A stretch of DNA of 30,105 nt, taken from positions 1-30,105 of the forward strand of contig JBNAVT010000024.1 of the NCBI GenBank assembly GCA_049700215.1. The letters run 5' to 3'. Position numbers and translations under genes: made by a program. A model generated the notes under the pieces. The model searched no databases. It was not told where the DNA came from and worked only from the letters and a program-made list of their open reading frames with translations. Position 1 is the stretch's first letter; the number at the start of each line of letters is the position of its first letter. This document shows, one piece after another, positions 3,460-28,214 of this stretch. This stretch comes from Thermoproteota archaeon (GTDB taxonomy: Archaea; Thermoproteota; EX4484-205; JAAOZP01).

Positions 3460-4452
3460 TTAAACAGGGATCCGGCCGGCGAACAGCCTTATGTATTCCT
3501 TAGCCTTCTCCTTAACCCTGTCCCTGGCCGCGGTGCCGAATTTCCTGAAGTCTTTTTCACTCGGGTTAGCCTGGTAGGCTTTTACGAAGCCTTCGATGAA
3601 GGCTATTGACAGGGCGGTTGCAACATTAACCTTAGTCACGCCACCAGTCTTGATAGCGTCTAGAAGAGTGCCCTCGCCCTTCTGCAGAACAATTCCTTTT
3701 TCACGCGCATCCTTCGGCGTCATGAGTATTCCGGATGAGCCGTGGGACACGATGGGTATTCGCATCCGCTCCTGTATTGCGACAAGCCTGTCTATGCGGA
3801 CTGGCCATATGTCGTCCCAAATCCCGTGTATCGAGCCGAAGGCGGCAGCCAGAAAGTCGCAGCCAGTCTTCTTCACAAAGTATTCAACGTCCTCTGGCTT
3901 AGCCATGAGCTCCTCCACAGACTTCCCTGCTTTCTCGCGAATAATCCTTACGGCTTCAGCCGGCGGTAGAGATCTTAAACGGGCTATCTCAGCCTGAGAG
4001 AAATAGTCTTCAATCTTCGGAATCTTCCCTAGCTCAGCCTCAACCGGCACTCCTTTGTCACGACACATTTCAACAACCTGCCGTGTAAGCCTAATGTTTT
4101 CTTCAAGCGGAAGAGAAGAACCGTCGAAAAGCACGGCTGTGAAGCCTGCGTCAAGGGCTTTTTTAACCTGGTCTATTTCAGTCGCGTGGTCAAGGTTGAG
4201 AGCTATGCGAACATCAGTCTCAGAGGCTGCGATCTTAACCATTCCAGCCCCCAGAGACCATCCTGCGTACTTGCTTGCACCGGGGCTCAGCTGGATTATC
4301 AGATCCATGGGTTCACCGACCTCCTTGGATACTTCTTCAGCAGCCCATATGAAAGCCTGTATCATCTCCATGTTGTTCGCGTTGAAAGCACCTACGGCTC
4401 TACCCTCTTTCAAGGCTGGTAGAAGCAGGTCGCGTTCATTTACTAGAGGCAT
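3460..4452 (-). CDS. Class II (Zn) ketose-bisphosphate aldolase, FbaA/GatY family
   Basis: AVGAFN, LNLDHA, FDGSSLPLEENI, VEAELG, AFGSIHG, VSHGSSG, KVNVAT, DFRK. ATG 4452 is preceded by GGAGG and a TATA box (GAAAGCTTTTATA, 4505-4493). Confidence 0.9.
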   Translation of the reverse strand: MPLVNERDLLLPALKEGRAVGAFNANNMEMIQAFIWAAEEVSKEVGEPMDLIIQLSPGASKYAGWSLGAGMVKIAASETDVRIALNLDHATEIDQVKKALDAGFTAVLFDGSSLPLEENIRLTRQVVEMCRDKGVPVEAELGKIPKIEDYFSQAEIARLRSLPPAEAVRIIREKAGKSVEELMAKPEDVEYFVKKTGCDFLAAAFGSIHGIWDDIWPVRIDRLVAIQERMRIPIVSHGSSGILMTPKDAREKGIVLQKGEGTLLDAIKTGGVTKVNVATALSIAFIEGFVKAYQANPSEKDFRKFGTAARDRVKEKAKEYIRLFAGRIPV

Positions 4453-4601
4453 ATATTCTCCCTCCTTTCCTTCTTTCCGTGTAGAGGAAAGGTATAAAAG
4501 CTTTCCCGTAATCAAGCGGTTAGCGCACGCGCGCTGCCGTTTCCCCAGTCCAGACCACGGGTAAAGTTTAAAAGCTCTTCGATTATCCGCCTGCGGAATT
4601 A

Positions 4602-5936
4602 TTGTTGTTGAAAATAATGAATAAAAAGATGCTTTCCAAAAGCAGGTGGAGAGAAGATGTTTTGGAAATACTTGAAGAAGGATTGATGGCGTCTGACCCG
4701 AAGAAATCGGTGGCTGATGCCCTTGAAGAGATAAGCGGGGAGATTGAGGCTGCGGAAAGGGTCTTCGTAATCGGGTTTGGAAAAGCCGCTTCGTCAATGG
4801 CTGAAGCATGCGAGGAAAAAATAGGGGAGAAGATTTTCGACGGCGCCATAATAATCCCGGAGAACGTTGACGCGAGAGGTCTTACGAGGATAAGGGTTTT
4901 CAGGGGGACGCACCCCGCTCCTTCAGAGGCTAGTGTCGAGTCGACCAGGAGGCTGGTTTCAAGCTGCCAGGGTTTAACCCGGAGAGACCTTGTAATATGC
5001 CTTATCTCCGGAGGAGGATCATCCCTGTTAACCCTCCCCGCTGAAGGCGTGAAGCTGGAGGAGAAGAAGATGGCGACAGACATCCTCCTGAAATCCGGTG
5101 CGGATATAAAGGAGATCAACATGGTTCGGAAACACTTATCTAGCGTTAAAGGAGGGCAATTGATAAACTTCCTTAAGCCTGCGAAAGTGGTTTCACTCAT
5201 TCTATCCGACATAGTGGGAGACCCTGTTGAGTACATTGCTTCAGGACCGACTTCCCCAGACCCGTCAACCTTTAAAGACGCTTACAACGTTATTTTGAAG
5301 TATGATCTGACGAGAAAGCTGCCTGGAAGCATTGTTGAAAGAATAGAAAGGGGGATGCGGGGGGAGGTCCCTGAAACCCCGAAGCCGGGGGACGAGATTT
5401 TCAACAATGTTAAGAACATTATCGTGTCAAACAACATGAGGTCCCTGACAGCGATGGAAAGGAAGGCTGTTGAACTAGGCTACAACACGCTTGTCTTAAC
5501 ATCGTTCGCCGAGGGGGAGGCTCGTGAAGTCGGAAGATTCCTATGCGCAATCGTTAAGCAAATAGCCGCCTACGACTCGCCTGTTAAAAAGCCAGCCTGC
5601 CTGGTAGTCGGCGGGGAGACTACCGTAACCGTTAAGGGCAGGGGGAAAGGAGGAAGGAACCAAGAGCTCACCCTATCCGTCTTAACTAGCTGCGGCGGTT
5701 TAAGGAACCTTGTCTTCGCATCGATTGGAAGCGACGGCATCGACGGCTATACTGATGCAGCAGGCGCCATTGCCGATTTTTCCACGCTGGAAAACGCGTG
5801 TAGCAAAGGACTGAATCCGGAGGCATTTCTCAAGGATAATGATTCCTACAATTTCTTCAAGCAGACGGGTGATCTAATCTTCACCGGTTCGACGGGCACT
5901 AACGTGAATGATTTCACCTTGGCAGTAGTATACTAG
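4602..5936 (+). CDS. Glycerate 2-kinase (MOFRL/GckA family)
   Basis: VIGFGKAA, THPAP, LISGGGSSL, RKHLSSVKGG, LSDIVGD, IASGPT, GGETTV, GGRNQE, SDGIDG, TGTNVND. TTG start 28 nt after AAAGTTTAAAAG; ATG 4617 is an alternative. Confidence 0.93.
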   Translation: MLLKIMNKKMLSKSRWREDVLEILEEGLMASDPKKSVADALEEISGEIEAAERVFVIGFGKAASSMAEACEEKIGEKIFDGAIIIPENVDARGLTRIRVFRGTHPAPSEASVESTRRLVSSCQGLTRRDLVICLISGGGSSLLTLPAEGVKLEEKKMATDILLKSGADIKEINMVRKHLSSVKGGQLINFLKPAKVVSLILSDIVGDPVEYIASGPTSPDPSTFKDAYNVILKYDLTRKLPGSIVERIERGMRGEVPETPKPGDEIFNNVKNIIVSNNMRSLTAMERKAVELGYNTLVLTSFAEGEAREVGRFLCAIVKQIAAYDSPVKKPACLVVGGETTVTVKGRGKGGRNQELTLSVLTSCGGLRNLVFASIGSDGIDGYTDAAGAIADFSTLENACSKGLNPEAFLKDNDSYNFFKQTGDLIFTGSTGTNVNDFTLAVVY

Positions 5937-5943
5937 AAGTAAA

Positions 5944-5973
5944 CACGTCGACGTGGCGAATACTCGTACGCCA
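5944..5973. terminator. Palindrome/hairpin in the gap between convergent genes (possible terminator)
   Basis: Perfect 12-bp palindrome CACGTCGACGTG (5944-5955) overlapping TGGCG-N10-CGCCA, in the 45-nt gap between two stop codons. Confidence 0.3.
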
Positions 5974-5981
5974 ATAGGCCT

Positions 5982-7058
5982 TTAAACAAGGTATTTAGAA
6001 ATGTATTTTCTCCCAGCGTATTCTTCAATCAGCTTCTCGTCTATCGGATACGTACCGTATTTCTTCGTCAACTCTATCATAAGCATGTAGTTGGAGGGCT
6101 TCACCGCCGGGTGGATACTGTTGCTCGAAGCCATGACGTGGCCACCGCCCGGAGACGCCTTCGCAATGGTCTCCTTCACCGCGTCTTCAACCTCTTTCTC
6201 ACTGCCGAGTGGGAGGACGTACGAGCAGTCAACATTCCCGATGACGGCTATTCGCCCACCGTACTTCCTCTTAACCTCACCAATATCCATCCCGGCAATG
6301 GGCTCTATCGGGTCAAGGGCGTCAATCCCCGAGTCAATGATCATGTCGATTATAAGCCAAAGATTGCCGTCAGTATGCTTTATGAAGGGGACTCCAAGCC
6401 TCTTGGCTGTTTGAACAACCCTCTTCAAATACGGTAGGACAAACTCTTCAAACTGCTTCACCGGCATAAACGGCCCCTTCCTGTCAGCATAGTCGTCTCC
6501 GGTTAAAACAACGTCAGCCCCCATCCTAACAGCCCTCTCTATGACCCTACACTTATACTGTGAAATGGTTTCGCTCAGCCTGTGGACGAAATCCTTATTC
6601 TTATGGTAGTGGAGAAAAAGGTTCCGCAAGCCGCCGACTAAATAGTGAGAGAACTCGAATGTTTCATGGCTGAGCAGCACTATCGCCCGCTCCCCTTTAA
6701 ACCTGTCAACGTATGATTCAAGCGTTTTCAGCCTCCAGTCTGCATCCGGGTCTGGGGGAGAATACTTGCCCAGGTCACCCGGCTCCTTAATCGGGCCCTT
6801 AACCGGGTAGTTTACCCCAGCGTCAATCGGCTTCCACCTTATCCCCCACTCGTCGACAAGGCATTCCCCGTTCTTCTCAAACCTTTGATCCTCGCTCACG
6901 CACACCCCGTCTAGCCCTGCCCACTCAATGAAGTCAGCGTAGGTCCCGCCTGGGAGCAGGCTTCCTATCACGGGCTCGTTTATTATGAGTTCCCAAAGGG
7001 GAACCCTGTCAGGCTGCTGCCTGTTCAAAGCTTTAAGGAACCTGTCTCGAGGCTTCAC
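5982..7058 (-). CDS. Uroporphyrinogen decarboxylase/MtaA-CmuA fold protein of unknown function (copy 1)
   Basis: QPDRVP, VDEWG, TGDDYA, IKHTDGN, LDPIEP, IGNVD, GGGHVMASSNSIH. GTG start 23 nt after GAAAGTTTATAAA. Confidence 0.85.
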   Translation of the reverse strand: MKPRDRFLKALNRQQPDRVPLWELIINEPVIGSLLPGGTYADFIEWAGLDGVCVSEDQRFEKNGECLVDEWGIRWKPIDAGVNYPVKGPIKEPGDLGKYSPPDPDADWRLKTLESYVDRFKGERAIVLLSHETFEFSHYLVGGLRNLFLHYHKNKDFVHRLSETISQYKCRVIERAVRMGADVVLTGDDYADRKGPFMPVKQFEEFVLPYLKRVVQTAKRLGVPFIKHTDGNLWLIIDMIIDSGIDALDPIEPIAGMDIGEVKRKYGGRIAVIGNVDCSYVLPLGSEKEVEDAVKETIAKASPGGGHVMASSNSIHPAVKPSNYMLMIELTKKYGTYPIDEKLIEEYAGRKYISKYLV

Positions 7059-7126
7059 GGTAAAGCCTGACTCCGCATCGTTTATAAACTTTCACTTCGC
7101 CCGCTTCCCCGGAAGCGCATGATTCC

Positions 7127-7927
7127 CTAAATGCTTGAAACCGACTGTTCCAGAACCTCTAACGAGAACCTCAGCTCTTCCCTCGGGTTCTCCCCAAGCC
7201 TTGCCTCAATAGACATTGCGCCACCGTACCCTATTTCCCTGAAGCATTCGAAGAGCCTGTGGAAATCTATAATACCTCTCCCCGGCACCCTGCTATTGTT
7301 ATCCGCGAGATGCACGTGAATAATTTCCCCTCCGGCTTTTTTCAAGGACTCCACCAAGTCGTATTCCTCCCTTATCATGTGTCTAATGTCTGCAGTCATC
7401 TTTACGAAATCGGAGTTAACTTTCTCAACGAGTTCCAAAGCTTCATCAACAGTGTTAACGAAATTGGTCTCGTTCTTCGGAAGCGGCTCGATGCCGAATC
7501 TCACGTTAAACTCCTCCCCTGCTCTAGCTGCCTCCTTCAGAACCTCCAGGTTTCTTTCACAGCCTTCTTGACGGGCTGTTTCAAAAGGTATGCTTCTAGC
7601 CTTTCCGGAGCCCCATACTAAAACGGGGCACTCGATCTCTGAAGCCGCTTCAGCAAGCCTGCGAGTATACTCTATGCTCCTCCTTCTCAAGTGTTCAGAG
7701 TTAGAAGCATGCGAGAAGTCCGGCGGGTAAATACTGTTTGAAGCAACTATGCTGACGCCATAAGAGCTTGAAAGCTCCCTTATTCTCTTTAAATCCGTCT
7801 TGGAAACCCTAAACGGGTTGATCTGCAGCCAGCCTGGAATCTCTATGGCTTCAAACCCGAGTTCGGAGAGGGTTTTAAAGTTCTCCTCAGTAGCCTGCAT
7901 GCAGACGCCGAGCCTCCAGTTCAACAA
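7127..7927 (-). CDS. Sugar (phosphate) isomerase/epimerase, xylose-isomerase-like TIM barrel, similar to ketose 3-epimerases
   Basis: GFEAIEI, GIEPL, ADIRHM, HVHLADNNSRVPGRG and SIEA together give the E/D/H/E metal site. Confidence 0.85.
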   Translation of the reverse strand: MLNWRLGVCMQATEENFKTLSELGFEAIEIPGWLQINPFRVSKTDLKRIRELSSSYGVSIVASNSIYPPDFSHASNSEHLRRRSIEYTRRLAEAASEIECPVLVWGSGKARSIPFETARQEGCERNLEVLKEAARAGEEFNVRFGIEPLPKNETNFVNTVDEALELVEKVNSDFVKMTADIRHMIREEYDLVESLKKAGGEIIHVHLADNNSRVPGRGIIDFHRLFECFREIGYGGAMSIEARLGENPREELRFSLEVLEQSVSSI

Positions 7928-11570: not shown

Positions 11571-12638
11571 TTACTTTGCAACAGCCCTGTATTTGTTCGC
11601 CGCATCGTATAGAGTCAGAATGTTTTCAATCGGCGTGTTTCTGAGAATCGTGTGGCTCGGCCTCAACGTGTACCCGGTTGGGCCAAGAATCCTAATGGCC
11701 TCCTTGACTTCCTGCTCTATCTCAGCCCTGTTTTTAAACGGGAGTGTTTGAACACCTATTCCGCCCTCGAAACTAAGTTTTTCACCATACTTCTCCTTTA
11801 TTTCCGCAATATTCATGCTCTCCGGCTGTAGGGGTTCTAAAACGTCTACGCCTATTTCAATCAGGTCCTGGACAATCGGCTCAATCCAGCCGTCGCTGTG
11901 AAAATGAAAGAAAGCTCCCCCCTTATGTATCACGTCGGCAAGCCTCTCATACCTTGGTTTCAAAAACTTTCTCCACTGGGTAGGGGAAACCAGCATGGTT
12001 GTCTGCGCGCCAACATCATCACCATTGTAAACCTGGTCTACACCTGCTTCAACGAGAAGCCTAGCCTGCTTACAGGATAGTTCGAAAAGCCTATCTAGGA
12101 CGAACTCTACTTTTCTAGGCTCACTAACCATCAGTTTAAAAATCTCGTTATACCCGAATAGTGCGCAAGCCGTTTCAAAAGCCTGCAGGGTAAAACCTAC
12201 AACGCAGTACTCCTCGTATCTTCTTCTAAACTTTTCAACCTTCTCAAAATCCTCTTCCCTTATTTCTGGGAAAGGATAGTCCTTTACCTCCATGTGTTTT
12301 AAAGGATGGTCTACGTAGAAACTAGTCAACCCGTTTCTGGAAACCATTGAAACAACACCCAAGTGGTTTCTGTGAAGAGCCCTACCCTGAGAGTCTTTAA
12401 AACTCTCCTCCTTAAAGCCGCCTTTCAAGCCAATTCCTATAGCGTCGATTCCAACATTTCCACGGTAATCTATTTTTAGAAGCATGTACAGCTTCTCCGT
12501 GTCCTCTAAACCAAGACGAGTCATCAGGCTCTTCAGAGGCTCCGGTGAGTCTATCCAAATATTGATGGGAACAAGGTCTATTTCCTCCCTTTTCACAGCC
12601 CTGTAGCACCTTTCCCTTGAACTATACCCTTTCTGCAT
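11571..12638 (-). CDS. Uroporphyrinogen decarboxylase/MtaA-CmuA fold protein of unknown function (copy 2)
   Basis: EIDLVP, NGDDVG, WRKFLKP, HFHSDGW, IGVDVLEPLQPE, FEGGI, GYTLRPSHTI. Confidence 0.85.
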   Translation of the reverse strand: MQKGYSSRERCYRAVKREEIDLVPINIWIDSPEPLKSLMTRLGLEDTEKLYMLLKIDYRGNVGIDAIGIGLKGGFKEESFKDSQGRALHRNHLGVVSMVSRNGLTSFYVDHPLKHMEVKDYPFPEIREEDFEKVEKFRRRYEEYCVVGFTLQAFETACALFGYNEIFKLMVSEPRKVEFVLDRLFELSCKQARLLVEAGVDQVYNGDDVGAQTTMLVSPTQWRKFLKPRYERLADVIHKGGAFFHFHSDGWIEPIVQDLIEIGVDVLEPLQPESMNIAEIKEKYGEKLSFEGGIGVQTLPFKNRAEIEQEVKEAIRILGPTGYTLRPSHTILRNTPIENILTLYDAANKYRAVAK

Positions 12639-12755: not shown

Positions 12756-15332
12756 CTACCGAACCAGTGGAACCTGAAACCCGCATTTAGGACACTTGCC
12801 TTCGGAAGTAACTCTCATGCTTAAAACGTTGAAACCTAAGCGTCTAATCAACAGTTCACTGCACTCAGGACACCACGTGTTCTCGTATTTATTGCCCGGG
12901 ACGTTTCCAACGTATGGGAACAACACGCCTAGGGATCTAGCGATCTCCCTAGCTTTCTCCAGGGTTTTAACCGGGGTTGGCGGAGCCTTAAACCTGTACT
13001 CCGGATGGTAGCGGGTGAAGTGGAGTGGCGTGTCAGGCCCCAGCGTCCTGAGATGAGTCTCAACCAATTGTCTAAGACGGCCCTCGTCGTCGTTAACCCC
13101 AGGAATCACTAGGTTAACTATCTCCACGTGGAGGCCTAGATCCTTGGCTCTCTGCGCATTCCTCCATACAACGCTTGCCTTAACCCCGCCGCAATACTTC
13201 TCGTAAACCTCCTCGTCACCCTTAACGTCGAACTTTATCGCATCCAGCCCTGCTTCGGCAAGGGCCTCCAGCGCTTTCAGCGTCATGTACCCGTTTGAAA
13301 CAAAAGTATTGTACAGTCTCTTCTCCCTAGCTAATGGGAAAAGGTCTAGACTGTATTCCAGCAGAAGAGTAGGCTCGTTGAAAGATATTGACGTTCCTTC
13401 GCAACCGCTTTTCAAAGCAATTTCTAAAAACTGTTCAGGACTAACATACCGAGCCCTTTTAGGGTTAGGCTTGTTCTTAGATATGTCGCTATTCTGACAA
13501 TTGGACACAAGAAAACCATTGGCGAAGAAATTATGCATCGACTCTGTTGTTGTCAAATCTCTTACGTCTGAAATCTCTACCGGTTCTATACTCTCAATAG
13601 ATTCCCAGACTAAACCTTCATCTCCAAGCTTAGACTCCTTAAGCCATTCTTGAAATTTTGGAATGTCGTATCCGCATGCCGCTCCAGTAGTCCTAGTGGG
13701 ATATCTAATCCATCGCCGAATGGCCGCCCTGTGGTTATTTTCACCAAGTTCATGAATTATTTTCGTAACCGAAAGACCAGCTCTTCTAAGTTCTAAAGCC
13801 TTCTCCCAAAGAGCCCGCCATCTTAATACACTCCTTTTCTTCATCAATAAATATTCAAACACGTATCTTGCTAGAATCTCCCACTCCTTATTATACCTGT
13901 AACCCACCTTTCCATAGAGATTCAGCAGATTTTCCAGGCTATTAGAAAACAACACGTAGATACATAAAGTTTTTTGACCGTTTTCCCTAAAAGGGCCATG
14001 ATGATTGTTAATACTGGTAATTTTTATTCCAAACTCGCTTGCTAACTGTCTTAGTTCATGCACAAATTCTATTCCATTCTTGTGTAATTTCTCTAGTTTG
14101 TTCAGGGAGAACCTTGGTTGGAAAAAGCTTTTACCAGATGGGCCAACTCTCGGTTTCGTTAGTTCACAGCCAAAAAAAGCTGCCAAGAATTCTCGTTTTA
14201 TTGATCTTGCGGCTTTAAAGAGCCAGCTCGGAATATGGTAAGCGGAAGCCGCCTTGTCACCTATGGGTACTCCGAGAGCAGTCATGAGAATCCATAAAGG
14301 TTTGGAACTGCATTGCATCCACACGCTTTTCCTTGAAATGACATGTGTTTTGCCATAGCGAACGATTTTAGAAATCTTTGGCTTTTTGATAATTTTATTT
14401 GAACCAAATCCAAGTTTTTCCAAGTCTTTCCTTATGGTTTGGAGATCCTCGTATGTACCTGTGAAAACTGTAGAAACACTATCCCTTATTCTTCGATGGC
14501 TTAGCGTCAAATAACCATCGCCGAACAAATGTCCCATAAGTCTAGCTATTATTGGGAGCTTTTCGTTGTCTAACCTGAGAGGTAAAAGGGATCTCTCCGT
14601 TAGCACGTTGATAATCTCGGCTTCATTCGACCGCGGAATATATTTTTTAATAAGTTTTTTTATCTCGTCCACAGTCACAATTACCTCAGACGGAGGCGGA
14701 TCCTTTTCTCGTGTAAATTGCGGCATCGGGTAAACGGCGACCCTATCTCCTATCTTCAAATCCTTTAACGGCAAGTAGCCGTTTGTGGTGTAGAACGGAT
14801 GTTCTTCAGTAGCGATGATTTCGCGTCCAGTTTCTTTTGTAACAATCCTGAAAGATCTAAGCCCCTTTGAGCGAGGATCAATCTTGAAATACCTCGCTAT
14901 TTTTGATGTGGCCAAGGTTTTATCCTCGAGATTACAGGTGACAATTTCATGGTGCTTCCAACATTTTTCGAGCCCGCCGATTGGAATAGTGTAACTATCG
15001 TTCAAGAGCACTTCCGTGCTAGGATCTAGACACCAAGGGCAGGAAAAGTTGCAGCTCCACGTTCCCACGGTAAGCGCGTAGCTGCCCGGGTGGAAGTGGA
15101 AAAAGGGCTTTTTCTCAATAGGATTTACCGAAATGGAGGATATGTCTCCGTAAACAATCGTGTATAGTTTTCCCTCAACGTTCACCCTGGTGCCGCAGAA
15201 TCCTTGAGAACCTTCTTTAATTCTACACTGGCGTTCGCAAGCCAAGCATACTGTCTCGTCAACCCCTGTCTTCTCGTAAAACCTTGCTTCCCTAACTGTT
15301 GGGAAACGTGTAAGCTCAGCCCCCTGCTTCAA
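12756..15332 (-). CDS. amrS: AmmeMemoRadiSam system radical SAM enzyme (PFL-activase-like), intein-containing precursor
   Basis: CLACERQC, GFCGTR, NPIEKKPFFHFHPGS, and spliced CNFSCPW|CQNSDIS; SFNEP, FVSNGY, PLHFTRYHP, YVGNVPG, TWCPEC, CPKCG. The spliced length is 347 aa, normal for this family. Confidence 0.9.
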   Translation of the reverse strand: MKQGAELTRFPTVREARFYEKTGVDETVCLACERQCRIKEGSQGFCGTRVNVEGKLYTIVYGDISSISVNPIEKKPFFHFHPGSYALTVGTWSCNFSCPWCLDPSTEVLLNDSYTIPIGGLEKCWKHHEIVTCNLEDKTLATSKIARYFKIDPRSKGLRSFRIVTKETGREIIATEEHPFYTTNGYLPLKDLKIGDRVAVYPMPQFTREKDPPPSEVIVTVDEIKKLIKKYIPRSNEAEIINVLTERSLLPLRLDNEKLPIIARLMGHLFGDGYLTLSHRRIRDSVSTVFTGTYEDLQTIRKDLEKLGFGSNKIIKKPKISKIVRYGKTHVISRKSVWMQCSSKPLWILMTALGVPIGDKAASAYHIPSWLFKAARSIKREFLAAFFGCELTKPRVGPSGKSFFQPRFSLNKLEKLHKNGIEFVHELRQLASEFGIKITSINNHHGPFRENGQKTLCIYVLFSNSLENLLNLYGKVGYRYNKEWEILARYVFEYLLMKKRSVLRWRALWEKALELRRAGLSVTKIIHELGENNHRAAIRRWIRYPTRTTGAACGYDIPKFQEWLKESKLGDEGLVWESIESIEPVEISDVRDLTTTESMHNFFANGFLVSNCQNSDISKNKPNPKRARYVSPEQFLEIALKSGCEGTSISFNEPTLLLEYSLDLFPLAREKRLYNTFVSNGYMTLKALEALAEAGLDAIKFDVKGDEEVYEKYCGGVKASVVWRNAQRAKDLGLHVEIVNLVIPGVNDDEGRLRQLVETHLRTLGPDTPLHFTRYHPEYRFKAPPTPVKTLEKAREIARSLGVLFPYVGNVPGNKYENTWCPECSELLIRRLGFNVLSMRVTSEGKCPKCGFQVPLVR
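13500..15032 (-). mobile_element. Intein (511 aa) with LAGLIDADG/DOD homing endonuclease
   Basis: Block A CLDPSTEVLL (codon 15032-15030), block B ATEEHPF, endonuclease motifs LMGHLFGDG and FLAAFFGCEL, block F VRDLTT, block G HNFFANGFLVSN|C (Asn codon 13502-13500). Several lines are visibly more AT-rich than the exteins. Confidence 0.95.
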
Positions 15333-20959: not shown

Positions 20960-21370
20960 ATGGCTGAGAAACCCACGGCAGCTTTCATTCTATCGTTAAT
21001 CGGAGCCATCCTAATCATTCTTAATGCTCTGATCCTTGCTTTTTTCACAACCTTGGTGGGCGTAGCCCTAGGTGTTTTCGGAAGGGCTTTAGGAGTGTTT
21101 CTACCTAGGCTAGGCAGCCTGGTTTTCCTATTAGGCATTGGGGGAATAGTTATTGGAATAATTGTTCTAGTAGGAGCATTCATGATTAATTCAGAGGACA
21201 AGAGTAGGGTTACAACCGGTTCGATCATAGTTCTGGTTTTTTCAATAATGAGCTTCTTCATCGGAGGAGGCTTCATAATAGGCTTCCTATTATGCATCGT
21301 CGGAAGTATTCTTGGCTTAACATGGAAACCTTCAGCCCCACCACCGCCACCGCCCTCACAATCCTATTGA
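20960..21370 (+). CDS. Small Gly-rich membrane protein with poly-Pro tail, function unknown
   Basis: MAEKPTAAFILSLIGAIL...GGGFIIGFLLCIVGSILGLTWKPSAPPPPPP. TATA CTTATAAG 27 nt upstream. Confidence 0.75.
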   Translation: MAEKPTAAFILSLIGAILIILNALILAFFTTLVGVALGVFGRALGVFLPRLGSLVFLLGIGGIVIGIIVLVGAFMINSEDKSRVTTGSIIVLVFSIMSFFIGGGFIIGFLLCIVGSILGLTWKPSAPPPPPPSQSY

Positions 21371-21454
21371 AAGCCTATTCAGCCTTATAACCGGCGACAC
21401 CCACGTTAAAATTCGAGAGATGTTTATATAATCCGCCTATAGGCTTATTCAGGA

Positions 21455-22669
21455 TTGGAACATCTTGAAAACGTTAGAGATCTTGTAAGGTATCACAGCA
21501 CGGTGGAGAGGGAGGTCTACCTTGACCTAGAGAACTCAACACCTGTTCCACCGGAGGTTCTTCAAGAAATGCTGCCCTACTTCTCTTCTAAAGCATACGG
21601 AAACCCTACGCTAACCCATAAGCAGGGCTGGGAGGCTTATGAAACAATCATGGATGCAGCCGGCTTCATTACGAGGCTGATAGGAGGACCCTCGCCGGAG
21701 GAATTGTGCTTCACCAGCGGCGAGGCGGAGGCGAATAGCTTAGCCGTCTTCGGCACCGCCGGAGAAAAACCCGGTAGAATAGTTGTCTCATCCATAGACC
21801 CCCTCACCATCCTGCTGCCGGTTGAAAAGCTTGAGAAAAGGGGTTTTGAAGTCGTTAGGGTTCCAGTCAACCCTGAAGGCATCGTGGATCTTGAGGCTTT
21901 ATCCAAAGCTGTCAACAGGGACACGGTGCTAGTCAGCATGAGCATGGTTAACAACGAGATTGGAACTATACAGCCGTTCAGAGAGATTGTGAAGACAGTC
22001 AGGGAGGGAAACCCGGATGCAACTGTGCACATGGATGCCTCAGATGCTTACGGAAGGATCAGCTTCAACGTTAAAGACATGGGTGTTGACTTGCTGAGCC
22101 TCAGCAGCTACAAGGTGATGGGCCCAAGGGGCGTGGCCGCGCTATACGTGAGAAGCGGGGTTGAGGTTGAAAGAATAATCGAGGGCCCGATAGGAACCCA
22201 GCGCCTCTGGCCTGGTGTCGAAAACACGCCGCTGATAGTCGGGTTTAAAAAGGCGTCGGAGCTAGCGTTTAAAGACTTTGACGGGAACGTCGGCAGGATG
22301 AGGAGGCTTAGAGACATGTTGATAAACGGTCTCCTAAGCATCGAGGATACTCTTCTAAACGGCCCGACGGGGGAGAAAAGGTCTCCGGACAACGTTAACA
22401 TAAGCTTCCTACACTGTGAGGGCGAATCCCTAACCATCGAGCTGAGCTTTAAAGGGGTTTATGTTTCAAGCGGAAGCGCGTGCACGAGAAGAATACTCCA
22501 GCCAAGCCATGTTTTAACAGCCATAGGGAGAGAGTATGAGGCTGCTCACGGGAGCATCCTTATGAAGGTTTCAAGATATCATACCGTTGAAGACATTGAG
22601 TATGTTTTAGAGTCTTTTAAGCCGGCTGTTGAAAGGATACGGGCCATGAGCCCGACAAGGAGGATTTAG
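21455..22669 (+). CDS. iscS: IscS/NifS-like class V aminotransferase-fold protein with non-canonical active site
   Basis: VYLD, YGNP, FTSG, VNNEIGTIQP, SYKVMGPRG, EGES, VSSGSACT, PSHVLTAIG. TTG start 24 nt after TTTATATA. Confidence 0.85.
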   Translation: MEHLENVRDLVRYHSTVEREVYLDLENSTPVPPEVLQEMLPYFSSKAYGNPTLTHKQGWEAYETIMDAAGFITRLIGGPSPEELCFTSGEAEANSLAVFGTAGEKPGRIVVSSIDPLTILLPVEKLEKRGFEVVRVPVNPEGIVDLEALSKAVNRDTVLVSMSMVNNEIGTIQPFREIVKTVREGNPDATVHMDASDAYGRISFNVKDMGVDLLSLSSYKVMGPRGVAALYVRSGVEVERIIEGPIGTQRLWPGVENTPLIVGFKKASELAFKDFDGNVGRMRRLRDMLINGLLSIEDTLLNGPTGEKRSPDNVNISFLHCEGESLTIELSFKGVYVSSGSACTRRILQPSHVLTAIGREYEAAHGSILMKVSRYHTVEDIEYVLESFKPAVERIRAMSPTRRI

Positions 22670-22670
22670 A

Positions 22671-23177
22671 ATGTCGAGATCCCCGCTGCCCTATAGCCAG
22701 AAGATCCTTGAGCTTTTCAGAAACCCTAGGAACCTTGGGAGAATGGAGGACGCTACTGTTTCAGCCACAGCCGGAAGCCCGGCTTGCGGAGACATGATAG
22801 CGTTCTACCTTAAGATTGACGAGAACATGGTTATAACGAGGGCAAGCTTTGAAAGCTACGGGTGTGCTGCAAACATAGCTACCGCCAGCATGCTCACGGA
22901 AATGGTGAAGGGCAGGAGCCTCGAGGAGGCTTGGAGGATAAGCTGGAAAGACGTTGCGAACGAGGTTGGCGGACTGCCTGCGGTCAAGCTTCACTGCGGA
23001 GTCCTTGCAGTGGGCGCGCTGAGGAGAGCCATAAGAGAGTTTTTCAGGGGGAGGGGGTTTAGGCCGGAATGGATGCCGGAGAAGGAGACTTTCGAGGAGA
23101 AACAGGCTTTGGAGGAAGAGGCGCTGTCGAAAATTATTTCGAAGAAGCTTATGCTGGGGGAGGCTGAGGAAAAGTGA
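22671..23177 (+). CDS. iscU: IscU/NifU-N iron-sulfur scaffold with charged C-terminal extension
   Basis: YSQKILELFRNPRNLG, SPACGD, SYGCAA and VKLHC supply three Cys plus Asp and His. Starts 1 nt after the iscS stop. Confidence 0.92.
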   Translation: MSRSPLPYSQKILELFRNPRNLGRMEDATVSATAGSPACGDMIAFYLKIDENMVITRASFESYGCAANIATASMLTEMVKGRSLEEAWRISWKDVANEVGGLPAVKLHCGVLAVGALRRAIREFFRGRGFRPEWMPEKETFEEKQALEEEALSKIISKKLMLGEAEEK

Positions 23178-23443
23178 TCCAGGAGTATGTGAGCAGGATA
23201 GAGGAGGCCTGCGGAGCCGCCAAGACGAAGGACTACATTGTTATACTGAAACAGGATAGGAGGGAGGAGGCTCTTAAGAGGGTTCTTGAAAAGAGCAGGG
23301 TCCTGGCTGAGGTCCACGGCGTGGCTGTTAAGGCGAGCTTCATGGGCAGGGAGCTCACGGCTTTTACAAACGGGAGGCTGATGTTTAAATCCCTCAGGGA
23401 CAGGGATGAGTTGAAAACACTGCTTGAGGAGCTCTTTAAGTGA
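23174..23443 (+). CDS. Small hypothetical protein resembling the C-terminal domain of ThiF/MoeB-family proteins
   Basis: GTGA overlap with the iscU stop. EEACG near the N-terminus and ELTAFTNGRLMFK near the C-terminus. The family link is from recall only. Confidence 0.65.
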   Translation: MIQEYVSRIEEACGAAKTKDYIVILKQDRREEALKRVLEKSRVLAEVHGVAVKASFMGRELTAFTNGRLMFKSLRDRDELKTLLEELFK

Positions 23444-23515
23444 GCCGACGCCAGCGTTAAAAACCGGTTTTCAAACTTTTAAAGCCCTGATGGGGAGGCT
23501 CTGGTCTGAGAATTA

Positions 23516-26912: not shown

Positions 26913-28214
26913 ATGATCGGAAGGGGAAAAGCAGGAGCGTTTTCAACCATTCTTATCCTCATTATTGCTGTTGCCACGCTTCACCCAGCTGGGGCTGGCG
27001 ATGAGGAGGTTAGGGTCAACTGGCTTGTTGAAGGAAATCCGGGCTTCTTTTTCGACATCGCTTTCTCAACCTGCGAGAATGGCCCGCACATCTACGTGGC
27101 TGGTTTCGACTCGTCAACCGAGAGCGGTGTGTTACAGATGCGTGTTGAAAAGAGGCTTAAGAGCGACGGGTCTCTGGTTAAAAACTGGACCTACATGCCC
27201 TCGGAATACGGGGGACTCCTCTACGGCTGTACAATCAGCAACAATAGGCTCTACGCTGTTGGAGCATCCTACTCCGTTAACTACAGTAGCTGGGTAATAC
27301 TGGTTCTAGATTCCGACCTGAACCTGCTTAGTTGCGTAAACTTAACGGAAATACCTGGAGCAGCGATTTCAGCCTTCAGCGACCAGGAGTTTCTCTACGT
27401 CGCCGGCATCAGCGCAACCGGGTTGAGTGAGAAAGTATACGTGAGAAAGATTAGGCTCAGCGACCTAAGCCTAGTTAAGGAGTATTCTTCAAATCTTTCA
27501 GCCGTAAACTACGCTTACGATATTGCTTTAAACCCTGTGAGCAACCAGCTATGGGTCGTGGGGAACGTCAACTCTGAAAAATGGAGGGTTGAAGTCTTAG
27601 ACAAGGATCTTAACCTGGTTAAAGAATTGGAGAGCGATATTGGTTCCTCCGCAACCTCAATAGGCTTTGACGACGAGGGCTATTCTTATATTGTTGGAGA
27701 CGGAGGGATACTCAAGCTAAGCAGAGACGCGGGAGAGGTTAAGAGATACGTTCAGCCCGTGCTCTTCTCTAAAGCCCTGTGGCTAAACAACCGTCTTTAC
27801 GTGGCCGGCGGAGAGAGCGTGGGCAACTACACTAGGCAGATCCTGTATGTCTTCGACCGTGAGCTTAACCTGCTTAACAGAACAGTCATAAGCATGAGTA
27901 TGGATGCGGACGCGATGTTTCTCATGGGTAAAATGGCTTCAGACGGTGAAAACATATACGCAGCCGGCCTCGCATACCTCGGCTACTATGACTACGAGTG
28001 GGTCGTATACTCGATAAAAGTCAGCAGCTACACGGTCCCCTGGTATGTTGAAAACTGGTATTTAACGTTGATACTCGTAGCAGTGTTGCTGGCTGTTTCA
28101 GCACTTCTCCTTCTGCTTATGAGGAGGAGAAGGAGGCTGCGGCAGGCTCCCCGGGAAGAGCCTTCCCATGAGACAGGGAAGCAGCAGCCCGAAGGCATGC
28201 GTCCAGTCGGCTGA
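26913..28214 (+). CDS. Secreted, C-terminally membrane-anchored beta-propeller protein
   Basis: Signal peptide, seven (I/L)Y(V/A)xG-type repeats with LDxDLNL linkers, several N-x-S/T sequons, and a C-terminal TM helix followed by RRRRR. Confidence 0.75.
   Translation: MIGRGKAGAFSTILILIIAVATLHPAGAGDEEVRVNWLVEGNPGFFFDIAFSTCENGPHIYVAGFDSSTESGVLQMRVEKRLKSDGSLVKNWTYMPSEYGGLLYGCTISNNRLYAVGASYSVNYSSWVILVLDSDLNLLSCVNLTEIPGAAISAFSDQEFLYVAGISATGLSEKVYVRKIRLSDLSLVKEYSSNLSAVNYAYDIALNPVSNQLWVVGNVNSEKWRVEVLDKDLNLVKELESDIGSSATSIGFDDEGYSYIVGDGGILKLSRDAGEVKRYVQPVLFSKALWLNNRLYVAGGESVGNYTRQILYVFDRELNLLNRTVISMSMDADAMFLMGKMASDGENIYAAGLAYLGYYDYEWVVYSIKVSSYTVPWYVENWYLTLILVAVLLAVSALLLLLMRRRRRLRQAPREEPSHETGKQQPEGMRPVG

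Follow-up and report, generated by a model that had tools for sequence, protein, structure and literature searches.

A remodelled IscS-like protein with an intact mobile cysteine loop is encoded beside IscU, and in relatives beside SufS, in Thermoproteota

To our knowledge, the inactive paralogs of the cysteine desulfurase IscS known so far comprise one protein of solved structure, from Archaeoglobus fulgidus, and one uncharacterised methanogen protein. We analysed a stretch of 30,105 nucleotides from a Thermoproteota archaeon (all of it called the window below), in which a variant IscS/MisS-like protein, here labelled S*, is encoded on the forward strand at positions 21455..22669. We observed that its pocket for pyridoxal 5'-phosphate (PLP) and substrate was remodelled and that its mobile cysteine loop was intact. 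The changes were shared by a clade of archaeal proteins whose genes stand beside one for an IscU scaffold and, in many relatives, beside a canonical SufS gene. No description of a variant with H104 changed to Pro and the Schiff-base Lys retained, or of an operon composed of S*, IscU, SufS and the small cysteine protein that we call X89, was found in the literature, of which subscription journals were thinly covered, so that absence is not proven.

Several described systems resemble this locus in part. The MIS system, consisting of MisS and MisU, was reportedly described by Garcia et al. in 2022. As at the S* locus, an IscS-like and an IscU-like gene form a pair there and chaperone and carrier genes are missing; MisS, however, is a desulfurase, whereas in S* the catalytic residues are missing and a separate SufS is linked in relatives. 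The MIS label fits the S*-IscU gene pair and not its enzymology. Pairs of SufS with SufU or SufE resemble the S* module in that the genes for a type-II SufS and an IscU-family protein occur together; type-II SufS requires an acceptor for its buried persulfide. Known SUF systems have neither a pseudo-type-I desulfurase nor X89, while the S* module has both, together with an ISC-type IscU.

Closest in kind are the inactive paralogs. According to passages of two reports, A. fulgidus IscS has no desulfurase activity and its cysteine ligates the cluster on IscU (PMC13066941, PMC7585200). Methanosarcina acetivorans IscS1 appears in passages of the second report as a Lys-less paralog, uncharacterised and found in inclusion bodies, for which an A. 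fulgidus-like role was proposed; these passages report no linkage of its gene to SufS or X89 (PMC7585200). Like S*, it is an archaeal IscS paralog deprived of essential residues, but S* retains the Lys.

The S* gene begins with TTG and runs uninterrupted through 404 aa, so that the initial annotation of the window was right to call the reading frame full length. Residues are numbered below either after E. coli IscS (e.g. K206) or after the window protein (K220 for the same residue). With canonical IscS, NifS and MisS the protein shares the fold, the long mobile cysteine loop, K206 and D180. It matched Pfam Aminotran_5 over residues 21-383 (E 3.6e-53), which places it in the class-V aminotransferase fold (fold-type I). 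The closest solved structures were those of A. fulgidus IscS (4R5F, E 8e-91; 4EB5, E ~6e-90; 39-41% identity), with human NFS1 and E. coli IscS (1.8e-69) ranking behind, and the choice of A. fulgidus IscS as precedent in the initial annotation was a sound one. The AF2 model, built on a 42-sequence alignment, had a pLDDT of 83.2 and a pTM of 0.86. In Foldseek it superposed on A. fulgidus IscS with TM 0.82-0.90 and on structures of IscS, NifS and NFS1 with TM 0.82-0.91; we conclude from this that the fold is whole.

S* differs from the canonical enzymes in three respects: five to six PLP and substrate contacts are replaced, the curated family cut-offs are missed, and there is an extra conserved N-terminal helix. 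It scored under every curated NCBIfam desulfurase cut-off (NifS, 355.2 vs 530.75; IscS, 304.5 vs 643.2 and, for a further model, 304.7 vs 548; IscS subfamily, 191.2 vs 304). The N-terminal extension (21455..21511, forward strand) covers codons 1-19, forms a helix at residues 7-15 in the model and is missing from canonical relatives, which align to S* only from query residues 8-21 onward. Within the S* clade its residues V7, L10 and H14 were conserved (alignment A1 and signature-site script).

For the pocket we used the E. coli K-12 IscS sequence of the annotated record as reference and aligned it with S* and the best 120 of 7178 database proteins found at E <= 1e-3. The resulting set of 121 sequences showed 60-100% identity to S*. 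For comparison we used 100 canonical representatives, which were selected by having H104 and so carry this His in 100/100 by definition. Pocket-facing positions were assigned by homology to E. coli IscS. All six substituted sites named in the initial annotation were present in this alignment, and they proved near-invariant in the set and not private to one genome. At E90-A91 (21722..21727, forward strand, as for all following sites), the counterpart of A75-T76 in the phosphate cup, SGATE has become SGEAE, with a carboxylate gained and the Thr hydroxyl gone. Position 75 was Glu in 116 of the 121 sequences and Glu or Asp in 119; position 76 was Thr in 93, Ala in 17 and Val in 11, compared with Thr or Ser in all 100 canonical representatives. 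P116 (21800..21802) replaces H104, the PLP-stacking acid/base His, by a change of EH to DP (Pro in 119/121). D194-A-S-D197 (22034..22045) stands for DATQ; D180 is kept (120/121) and Q183 is changed to Asp (118/121). D180 was changed to Pro in the ortholog of genome G037 and to Asn in P0023. At Y219-K220 (22109..22114), SGHK has become SSYK, i.e. H205 gave way to Tyr (119/121) and the Schiff-base Lys206 was retained in every sequence, next to S204 (120/121) and S203 (118/121).

R240-S-G-T243, a cross-subunit loop in canonical enzymes in which T243 reportedly contacts the PLP phosphate of the partner subunit (E. coli IscS structure), is replaced by W252-P253-G254-V255 (22208..22219). W240 and P241 were invariant (121/121 each) and position 243 was Val or Ile in 120/121; the monomer model predicts this loop with low confidence (pLDDT < 50 at residues 241-253). 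L369-M370-K371 (22559..22567) changes SIRFS to SILMK, so R354 became Leu and S356 became Lys, which shifts the positive charge by two residues on the same strand; L354, M355 and K356 were each found in 121/121. The mobile loop (22466..22516) begins S338-S-G-S-A-C343 and continues T-R-R-I-L-Q-P-S-H-V-L. Its C343 corresponds to C328; SSGSAC with this cysteine was present in all 121 sequences, and R345, L348, Q349, P350, S351 and H352 were invariant in alignment A1. The Schiff-base Lys, N155 and the SSGSAC cysteine had been called intact in the initial annotation, and we found them as K220, N167 and C343. Across the set, N155 was Asn in 41, His in 77 and Pro in 3 sequences, against Asn in 95/100 canonical representatives, while N35, N154 and E156 were as conserved as in true enzymes. 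Taken together, S* keeps the Schiff-base Lys (K220) and the Asp facing the pyridine nitrogen (D194), and it lacks the PLP-stacking His, the O3' ligand Gln183, the phosphate ligands T76, H205 and T243' and the carboxylate ligand R354, with D197, A91, Y219, V255 and L369 in the places of the last five.

The substituted proteins formed a clade. In a FastTree tree, 17 P104-type sequences made one group (support 0.993) with P0121 as sister (support 0.986). P0121 is an intermediate: it retained G75, H104, H205 and K206, but carried D183, WPGV and SILFK. We scanned the patterns of a clade alignment over one genome per species (80 loci) and distinguished two types. Type A follows [PS][GS]E[TA]E / [ED]P / DASD / SS[YFN]K / WPG[VI] / SILMK and came from records under the labels Bathyarchaeota or Bathyarchaeia and from the lineage of the window; most Bathyarchaeia-labelled loci carried the S* clade. 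Type B keeps H104 and H205 and follows HSGTE / EH / DA[CSV]D / S[SG]HK / WPG[VIL] / SIL[MF]K, in hosts labelled Aigarchaeota, Desulfurococcales, Zestosphaera, Methanomethyliaceae, Nitrososphaeria, Geocrenenecus, Wolframiiraptor and Terraquivivens. Position 205 was Phe or Asn in 5 type-A loci (Phe in L042, L047, L057 and L059), and position 243 among clade loci was Val, Ile or Leu, i.e. any aliphatic residue. A second tree placed types A and B as sister groups that shared a long stem, with the window lineage (L035) basal within type A. The substitutions would then have come in two steps: Q183D, N155H, R240W/S241P, T243V and R354L with S356K in the first, and G/A75E, H104P and H205Y, in type A, in the second.

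Loss of several catalytic residues would also be expected if the gene were decaying or dispensable and selection on it relaxed, an explanation to which we attach next to no probability. The reading frame is full length and the new residues are near-invariant in the 121 sequences. Among 12 orthologs of the genus, dN/dS was 0.05-0.10 for all pairs with dS < 1.5 (Nei-Gojobori script), except for the closest pair (0.17 at dS 0.096). The gene was present, at 75-97% identity, in 13 of 16 further genomes from the genus (the remaining three, which gave no match, are 70-89% complete) and in about one quarter of sampled Thermoproteota; its operon was conserved. On the selection and conservation data we ruled out a pseudogene. 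Since dN/dS was low and the new residues stayed invariant across 60-90% identity, the gene is functional. Read at the level of sequence, the monophyletic clade, the conserved new residues and the purifying selection mean that S* is repurposed and not decaying. This agrees with what the initial annotation had suggested, given the clade support of 0.99, the dN/dS values and an adjacent IscU gene in 53/53 clade loci.

We assessed distribution in 251 Thermoproteota genomes, sampled evenly and each at least 90% complete. A homolog at E <= 1e-30 was present in 125 of them; 29 genomes fell into a type-A band (>= 56% identity) and 35 into a type-B band (47-55%), so that the S* clade occurred in 64/251. 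These bands were calibrated on motif-checked loci, and the sampled genomes were assigned by identity alone. Homologs at 37-42% identity from the same order or phylum were canonical in all seven cases (L023-L029), with EH, DAxQ, S[AGS]HK, RS[GS]T and S[IL]R. Of the 150 nearest representatives clustered at 50% identity, 113 had one of the three commonest patterns (101 fully canonical, in two patterns; 12 differing solely by Ser at 205), and just four (P0121, P0122, P0124, P0151) grouped with S*. Within the small class to which the window belongs (G017-G025 compared), the variant was confined to its own genus, while families of the same order had canonical MisS at about 40% identity. Either replacement or lateral transfer could account for this patchiness, and the direction of transfer cannot be called because this genus branches at the base of type A.

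Two observations on more distant relatives were made alongside. The Schiff-base Lys was lacking in 15/150 representatives, replaced by T, M, L, A, S, G, P, R, Y or D, and one of these had an A. fulgidus-like pattern; therefore catalysis in IscS-like proteins seems to have been lost repeatedly. In a record titled Heimdallarchaeota MAG (L085, 1287-2528), we found a diverged relative at 44% identity with SHK changed to SNR (K206 to Arg) and WPGV to SPDV. It kept SLLMK and an adjoining IscU gene, and an X89-like reading frame (27% identity) lay just upstream.

What the residues imply can be read against E. coli IscS. According to passages of PMC9978102, H104 lies above the pyridoxal ring as proposed acid/base, D180 hydrogen-bonds N1 of PLP and Q183 its O3', and R354 binds the substrate carboxylate; H104Q, D180G, Q183E, K206A and C328S are inactive, and R354K is fully active. 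With Pro104, Asp183 and Leu354, canonical cysteine desulfuration is very unlikely in S*, and we consider that the protein very probably lacks desulfurase activity. S* probably does without PLP as well, a claim to which we give clearly less weight. Loss of the cofactor is suggested because T76 is Ala or Val in 28/121 sequences, N155 is variable, Phe and Asn are tolerated at 205, position 243 is aliphatic and position 75 is acidic. An acidic residue at 75 recurred in unrelated degenerate relatives (P0128, P0155) and may possibly act as a stand-in for the PLP phosphate. The PLP independence proposed in the initial annotation is thus plausible, but K206, D180 and S203 are still near-invariant.

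These three residues, together with N35, N154 and E156 at enzyme-like conservation, are unexpected for an empty pocket and leave room for a bound cofactor or other ligand. Type B, which keeps G75, T76, H104, H205, D180 and K206 and has all PLP ligands but Q183 and T243, may bind PLP. K356 could partly substitute for R354, the charge having moved by only two residues in all 121 sequences; the E. coli R354K enzyme is fully active, as cited above. All this counts against the explanation that we favour below, and it would suit an alternative in which S* is still a PLP enzyme whose pocket has been altered and whose reaction or substrate has changed, for example a slow or regulated desulfurase, a lyase without the normal alpha-carboxylate contact, or an enzyme specific for selenocysteine or persulfide. 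K220 would then provide the Schiff base, with D194 holding the pyridine nitrogen, Y219 standing in for H205 at the phosphate and K371 for R354; invariant replacement residues are what a new active site would predict. We nevertheless regard this alternative as unlikely. Pro104 is capable neither of ring stacking nor of acid/base chemistry, and H104Q and Q183E are inactive in E. coli (passages of PMC9978102). The phosphate cup has a carboxylate at position 75, the hydroxyl of Thr76 can be dispensed with (S* itself is among the 28 sequences without it), and since Phe is allowed at 205 no hydroxyl is needed there as phosphate ligand. N155 varies, D180 is replaced in the two cases given above, and the intact SufS co-encoded in relatives makes a second desulfurase unneeded.

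It is also conceivable, at rather low probability, that the vacated pocket has become a new site, predicted to consist of E90, D194, D197, Y219, K220, K371 and W252 of the partner, for a metal such as Fe(II) or a small ligand, so that S* would supply or gate a non-sulfur item for IscU. Former cofactor positions are occupied by three carboxylates, one Tyr and two Lys, all invariant or nearly so and more strictly conserved than T76 and N155, which are left over from the set of PLP ligands; the acidic residue at 75 recurs in P0128 and P0155. Set against this, the same residues could merely fill and neutralise an empty pocket, and the proposal is drawn from sequence.

The comparison with A. fulgidus IscS2 (PDB 4EB5, 4EB7, 4HVK, 4R5F) showed a mixed picture. 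In both cases IscU is encoded alongside and the SGSAC loop cysteine is present. The initial annotation had described the A. fulgidus pattern as the opposite of that in S*. This holds for the Lys, which is lost there (K206 to Asp), and for H104, which is kept there along with A75, T76, R240 and Ser/Thr243, where S* has P104, E75, W240-P241 and V243, together with K206 and K356. It does not hold for Q183, H205 and R354, which are lost in A. fulgidus IscS too (Ala, Asn and Leu), so that part of the degeneration is shared. In our trees, A. fulgidus-like patterns (P0132, L090) fell outside the S* clade, which suggests that the degenerate state of S* arose independently of the A. fulgidus type, whose own sequence was absent from the tree. 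To judge by its residues, S* is most like A. fulgidus IscS in its way of working, yet it is of a different type, with the Lys kept, other losses and a separate origin.

We then compared the gene neighbourhoods. The gene following S* in the window (22671..23177, forward strand) starts 1 nt past the S* stop codon and encodes an IscU/MisU-type scaffold of 168 aa (Pfam NifU_N, 1.1e-38; NCBIfam match). Its residues include C39, D41, C65, H108 and C109, and its C-terminal tail is acidic and conserved (alignment A3). The conserved Asp and the His-Cys pair mark it as ISC-type, and no SufU insertion was seen. Among the 53 clade loci, IscU lay downstream of S* in 52 and upstream in one (L081). No HscA, HscB, IscA or ferredoxin gene adjoined S*-IscU among the window reading frames as judged by Pfam.

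The third gene in many relatives was SufS. Locus L040 shows the full arrangement: S* at 3959-5221, IscU at 5224-5724, type-II SufS at 5721-6962 and an X89 homolog at 6962-7231. SufS stood directly after IscU, with reading frames overlapping or abutting, in 32/35 type-A loci; the exceptions were L035, L037, where the contig ends about 190 bp past X89, and L041, where SufS lies beyond X89 on the opposite strand. In type-B loci SufS was found within flanks of about 4 kb in 9/17, and by coordinates it adjoined S* in many genomes of the phylum sample. The canonical MisS of family f5 was far from SufS in the two genomes compared (G026, G036). All 35 full-length linked SufS proteins kept the His, Asp..Gln, GHK, Cys and Arg motifs, and the L040 protein cleared the NCBIfam SufS cut-off (573.7 vs 475.1).

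The order in the genus of the window was S*-IscU-X89 without SufS in 10/12 loci, the remaining two being truncated. The genome does possess SufS, on contig C18 (NCBIfam 507.2 vs 475.1), which answers the question raised earlier of a canonical desulfurase elsewhere. A 124-aa SufU-like gene follows it, and a SufB-family gene is present on contig C25. Neither SufE nor TusA gave a family match in this genome, which is 94.6% complete, so SufS needs some other acceptor. A SufS-family match at E <= 1e-60 was obtained in 186/251 genomes of the sample, in 29/29 of the type-A band and in 33/35 of the type-B band, i.e. in 62/64 S*-bearing genomes.

These data bear on the source of sulfur. The initial annotation had proposed that S* is a PLP-free co-scaffold with IscU, like A. 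fulgidus IscS, building clusters from environmental sulfide with no desulfurase input. The residue pattern and the IscU linkage are as compatible with this as with the explanation we favour; the window DNA occurs in hot-spring metagenomes, the operon in its genus has no SufS, and sulfide-based assembly is documented both in the SMS system of archaea and in E. coli without IscS (PMC12192291, PMC13015791). The proposed sulfide source is contradicted, however, by the canonical SufS directly after IscU in nearly all type-A loci, by the SufS-family match in every type-A-band genome and in 62 of the 64 S*-bearing ones, and by the SufS and SufU-like genes of the window genome itself. X89, moreover, tracks the S* clade and usually follows SufS. 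The linkage of SufS and the pattern of X89 point to cysteine-derived sulfur, and we consider the sulfide explanation improbable.

Two side observations concern further desulfurase-like genes. The window genome (G000) has a second degenerate gene of this kind on contig C23 (L003, 1450-2595, reverse strand), which encodes a 382-aa SufS-like protein with 28% identity to the C18 SufS and an NCBIfam SufS score of 115 against the cut-off of 475; the BLASTP alignment shows other residues in place of the SufS His (MEHHSN), of the GHK Lys and of the active-site Cys. A record titled Candidatus Atabeyarchaeum deiterrae (L090) carries an A. fulgidus-type pseudo-desulfurase at 3971-5167 (SSND, Q183A, R354Q) and, about 400 bp after it, a SufS-like gene at 5574-6875; IscU was not detected in the locus. 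Linkage between a degenerate IscS paralog and SufS may thus be broader than the S* clade.

The last gene of the group, X89 (23174..23443, forward strand), begins with GTG, shares 4 nt with the end of the IscU gene and encodes 89 aa. Neither this gene nor the intermediate type-B grade figured in the initial annotation. Across 25 aligned family members (alignment A2), Cys13-Gly14 was invariant, and in the model (pLDDT 91.9), which is of beta-beta-alpha-beta4-alpha topology, Cys13 lies in the first hairpin. The single sequence had no Pfam or NCBIfam match and the model no Foldseek match in the PDB at E <= 1e-3. Twelve of the 25 members gave weak matches to each of Pfam TBP and DUF3378 (best TBP 6.6e-4, under cut-off). 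The top VIA-align match of X89 was TBP 1mp9_B (Z 7.0, middling by the scale of the tool; rmsd 2.6 over 79 residues), and an Atlas structure search returned only unnamed archaeal clusters of 82-91 aa. Sequence and model matches hint that X89 may be a single TBP-like domain.

X89 was present in 32/35 type-A loci, the remaining three ending inside SufS, and mostly lay directly downstream of SufS. A profile search of the 251 genomes found it in 29/29 of the type-A band, in 12/35 of the type-B band and in 0/187 others, that is, in 41/64 S*-bearing genomes, with hits spanning at least 12 families; related genomes are included in these counts, which are thus not independent samples. The apparent absence of X89 from type-B loci in blastp was an artefact of sensitivity and flank length and was discarded after the profile search.

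The three genes of the window may form one transcription unit. A TATA-box-like element, TTTATATA, can be read directly at 21423..21430 (forward strand), 25 nt ahead of the S* TTG start. In archaea the TATA box lies about 26 nt ahead of the point where transcription begins, and TTTATATA is a candidate promoter that would give a leaderless or near-leaderless transcript. Two short T runs follow the X89 stop (23469..23480, forward strand) and possibly mark the end of the unit. Immediately 5' of the promoter region, at 20960-21370 (forward strand), we found a predicted membrane protein of 136 aa with a poly-Pro C-terminus and weak matches, under cut-offs, to DUF6114 and DUF4064.

The explanation that we favour, and to which we give about an even chance, is that S* is a type-I desulfurase paralog without desulfuration, kept as an IscU-docking, cysteine-loop subunit of a hybrid MIS/SUF module that takes its sulfur from SufS. 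The S* dimer would dock two IscU/MisU scaffolds, as IscS does. By analogy with the A. fulgidus IscS-IscU complex, C343 on the long mobile loop could serve as a persulfide relay, as fourth ligand of the nascent [2Fe-2S] cluster, or as both. The persulfide sulfur would be generated by a separate enzyme, the canonical type-II SufS, and accepted by X89 (through Cys13), by IscU or by both; X89 would be an accessory of the module and possibly the SufS acceptor.

Further points of the opposing kind concern SufS. In the window genus it lies on a separate contig with a SufU-like partner, and the two systems could work independently there. Two genomes of the type-B band (G110 and G188, 96-97% complete) had no SufS-family match at E <= 1e-60. 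Because SufS is common in the phylum, co-occurrence is weak alone and adjacency carries the argument. A more far-reaching form of the favoured explanation, which we put forward tentatively and hold to be possible but doubtful, is that S*, IscU, SufS and X89 make up an undescribed four-component iron-sulfur assembly machine of Thermoproteota, in which SufS would perform the PLP chemistry, X89 would accept persulfide, S* would be scaffold holder and relay, and the rebuilt pocket (E90, D197, Y219, K220, K371, W252') would be a new ligand or metal site.

Elsewhere in the window we noted genes of other kinds. An 857-aa radical-SAM protein is encoded at 12756-15332 (reverse strand); its residues 114-610 matched Pfam Intein_splicing, and the enzyme probably carries an intein. 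Two URO-D-family genes (5982-7058 and 11571-12638, both reverse strand; E 3.5e-33 and 5.8e-26) lie in a neighbourhood of sugar metabolism with a GH42 beta-galactosidase, GH20, a class-II aldolase, MOFRL/DUF4147 and a xylose-isomerase-like TIM barrel. A 433-aa reading frame at 26913-28214 (forward strand), between the genes for MoeA and a GFO/IDH/MocA oxidoreductase, had no Pfam match at E <= 1e-5.

In summary, the annotation of S* genes as cysteine desulfurases overstates the desulfurase complement inferred for these uncultured archaea. The two grades of the clade give an order to the loss of catalytic residues, with substrate and O3' contacts going first and the stacking His and phosphate ligands later. 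The favoured explanation gives a pseudo-desulfurase a concrete, testable model of division of labour; the module would be a natural hybrid of two proposed ancestral iron-sulfur systems, and X89 is a candidate for a new sulfur-relay protein. If the four-component machine were real, it would be a living intermediate in which MIS and SUF parts recombine.

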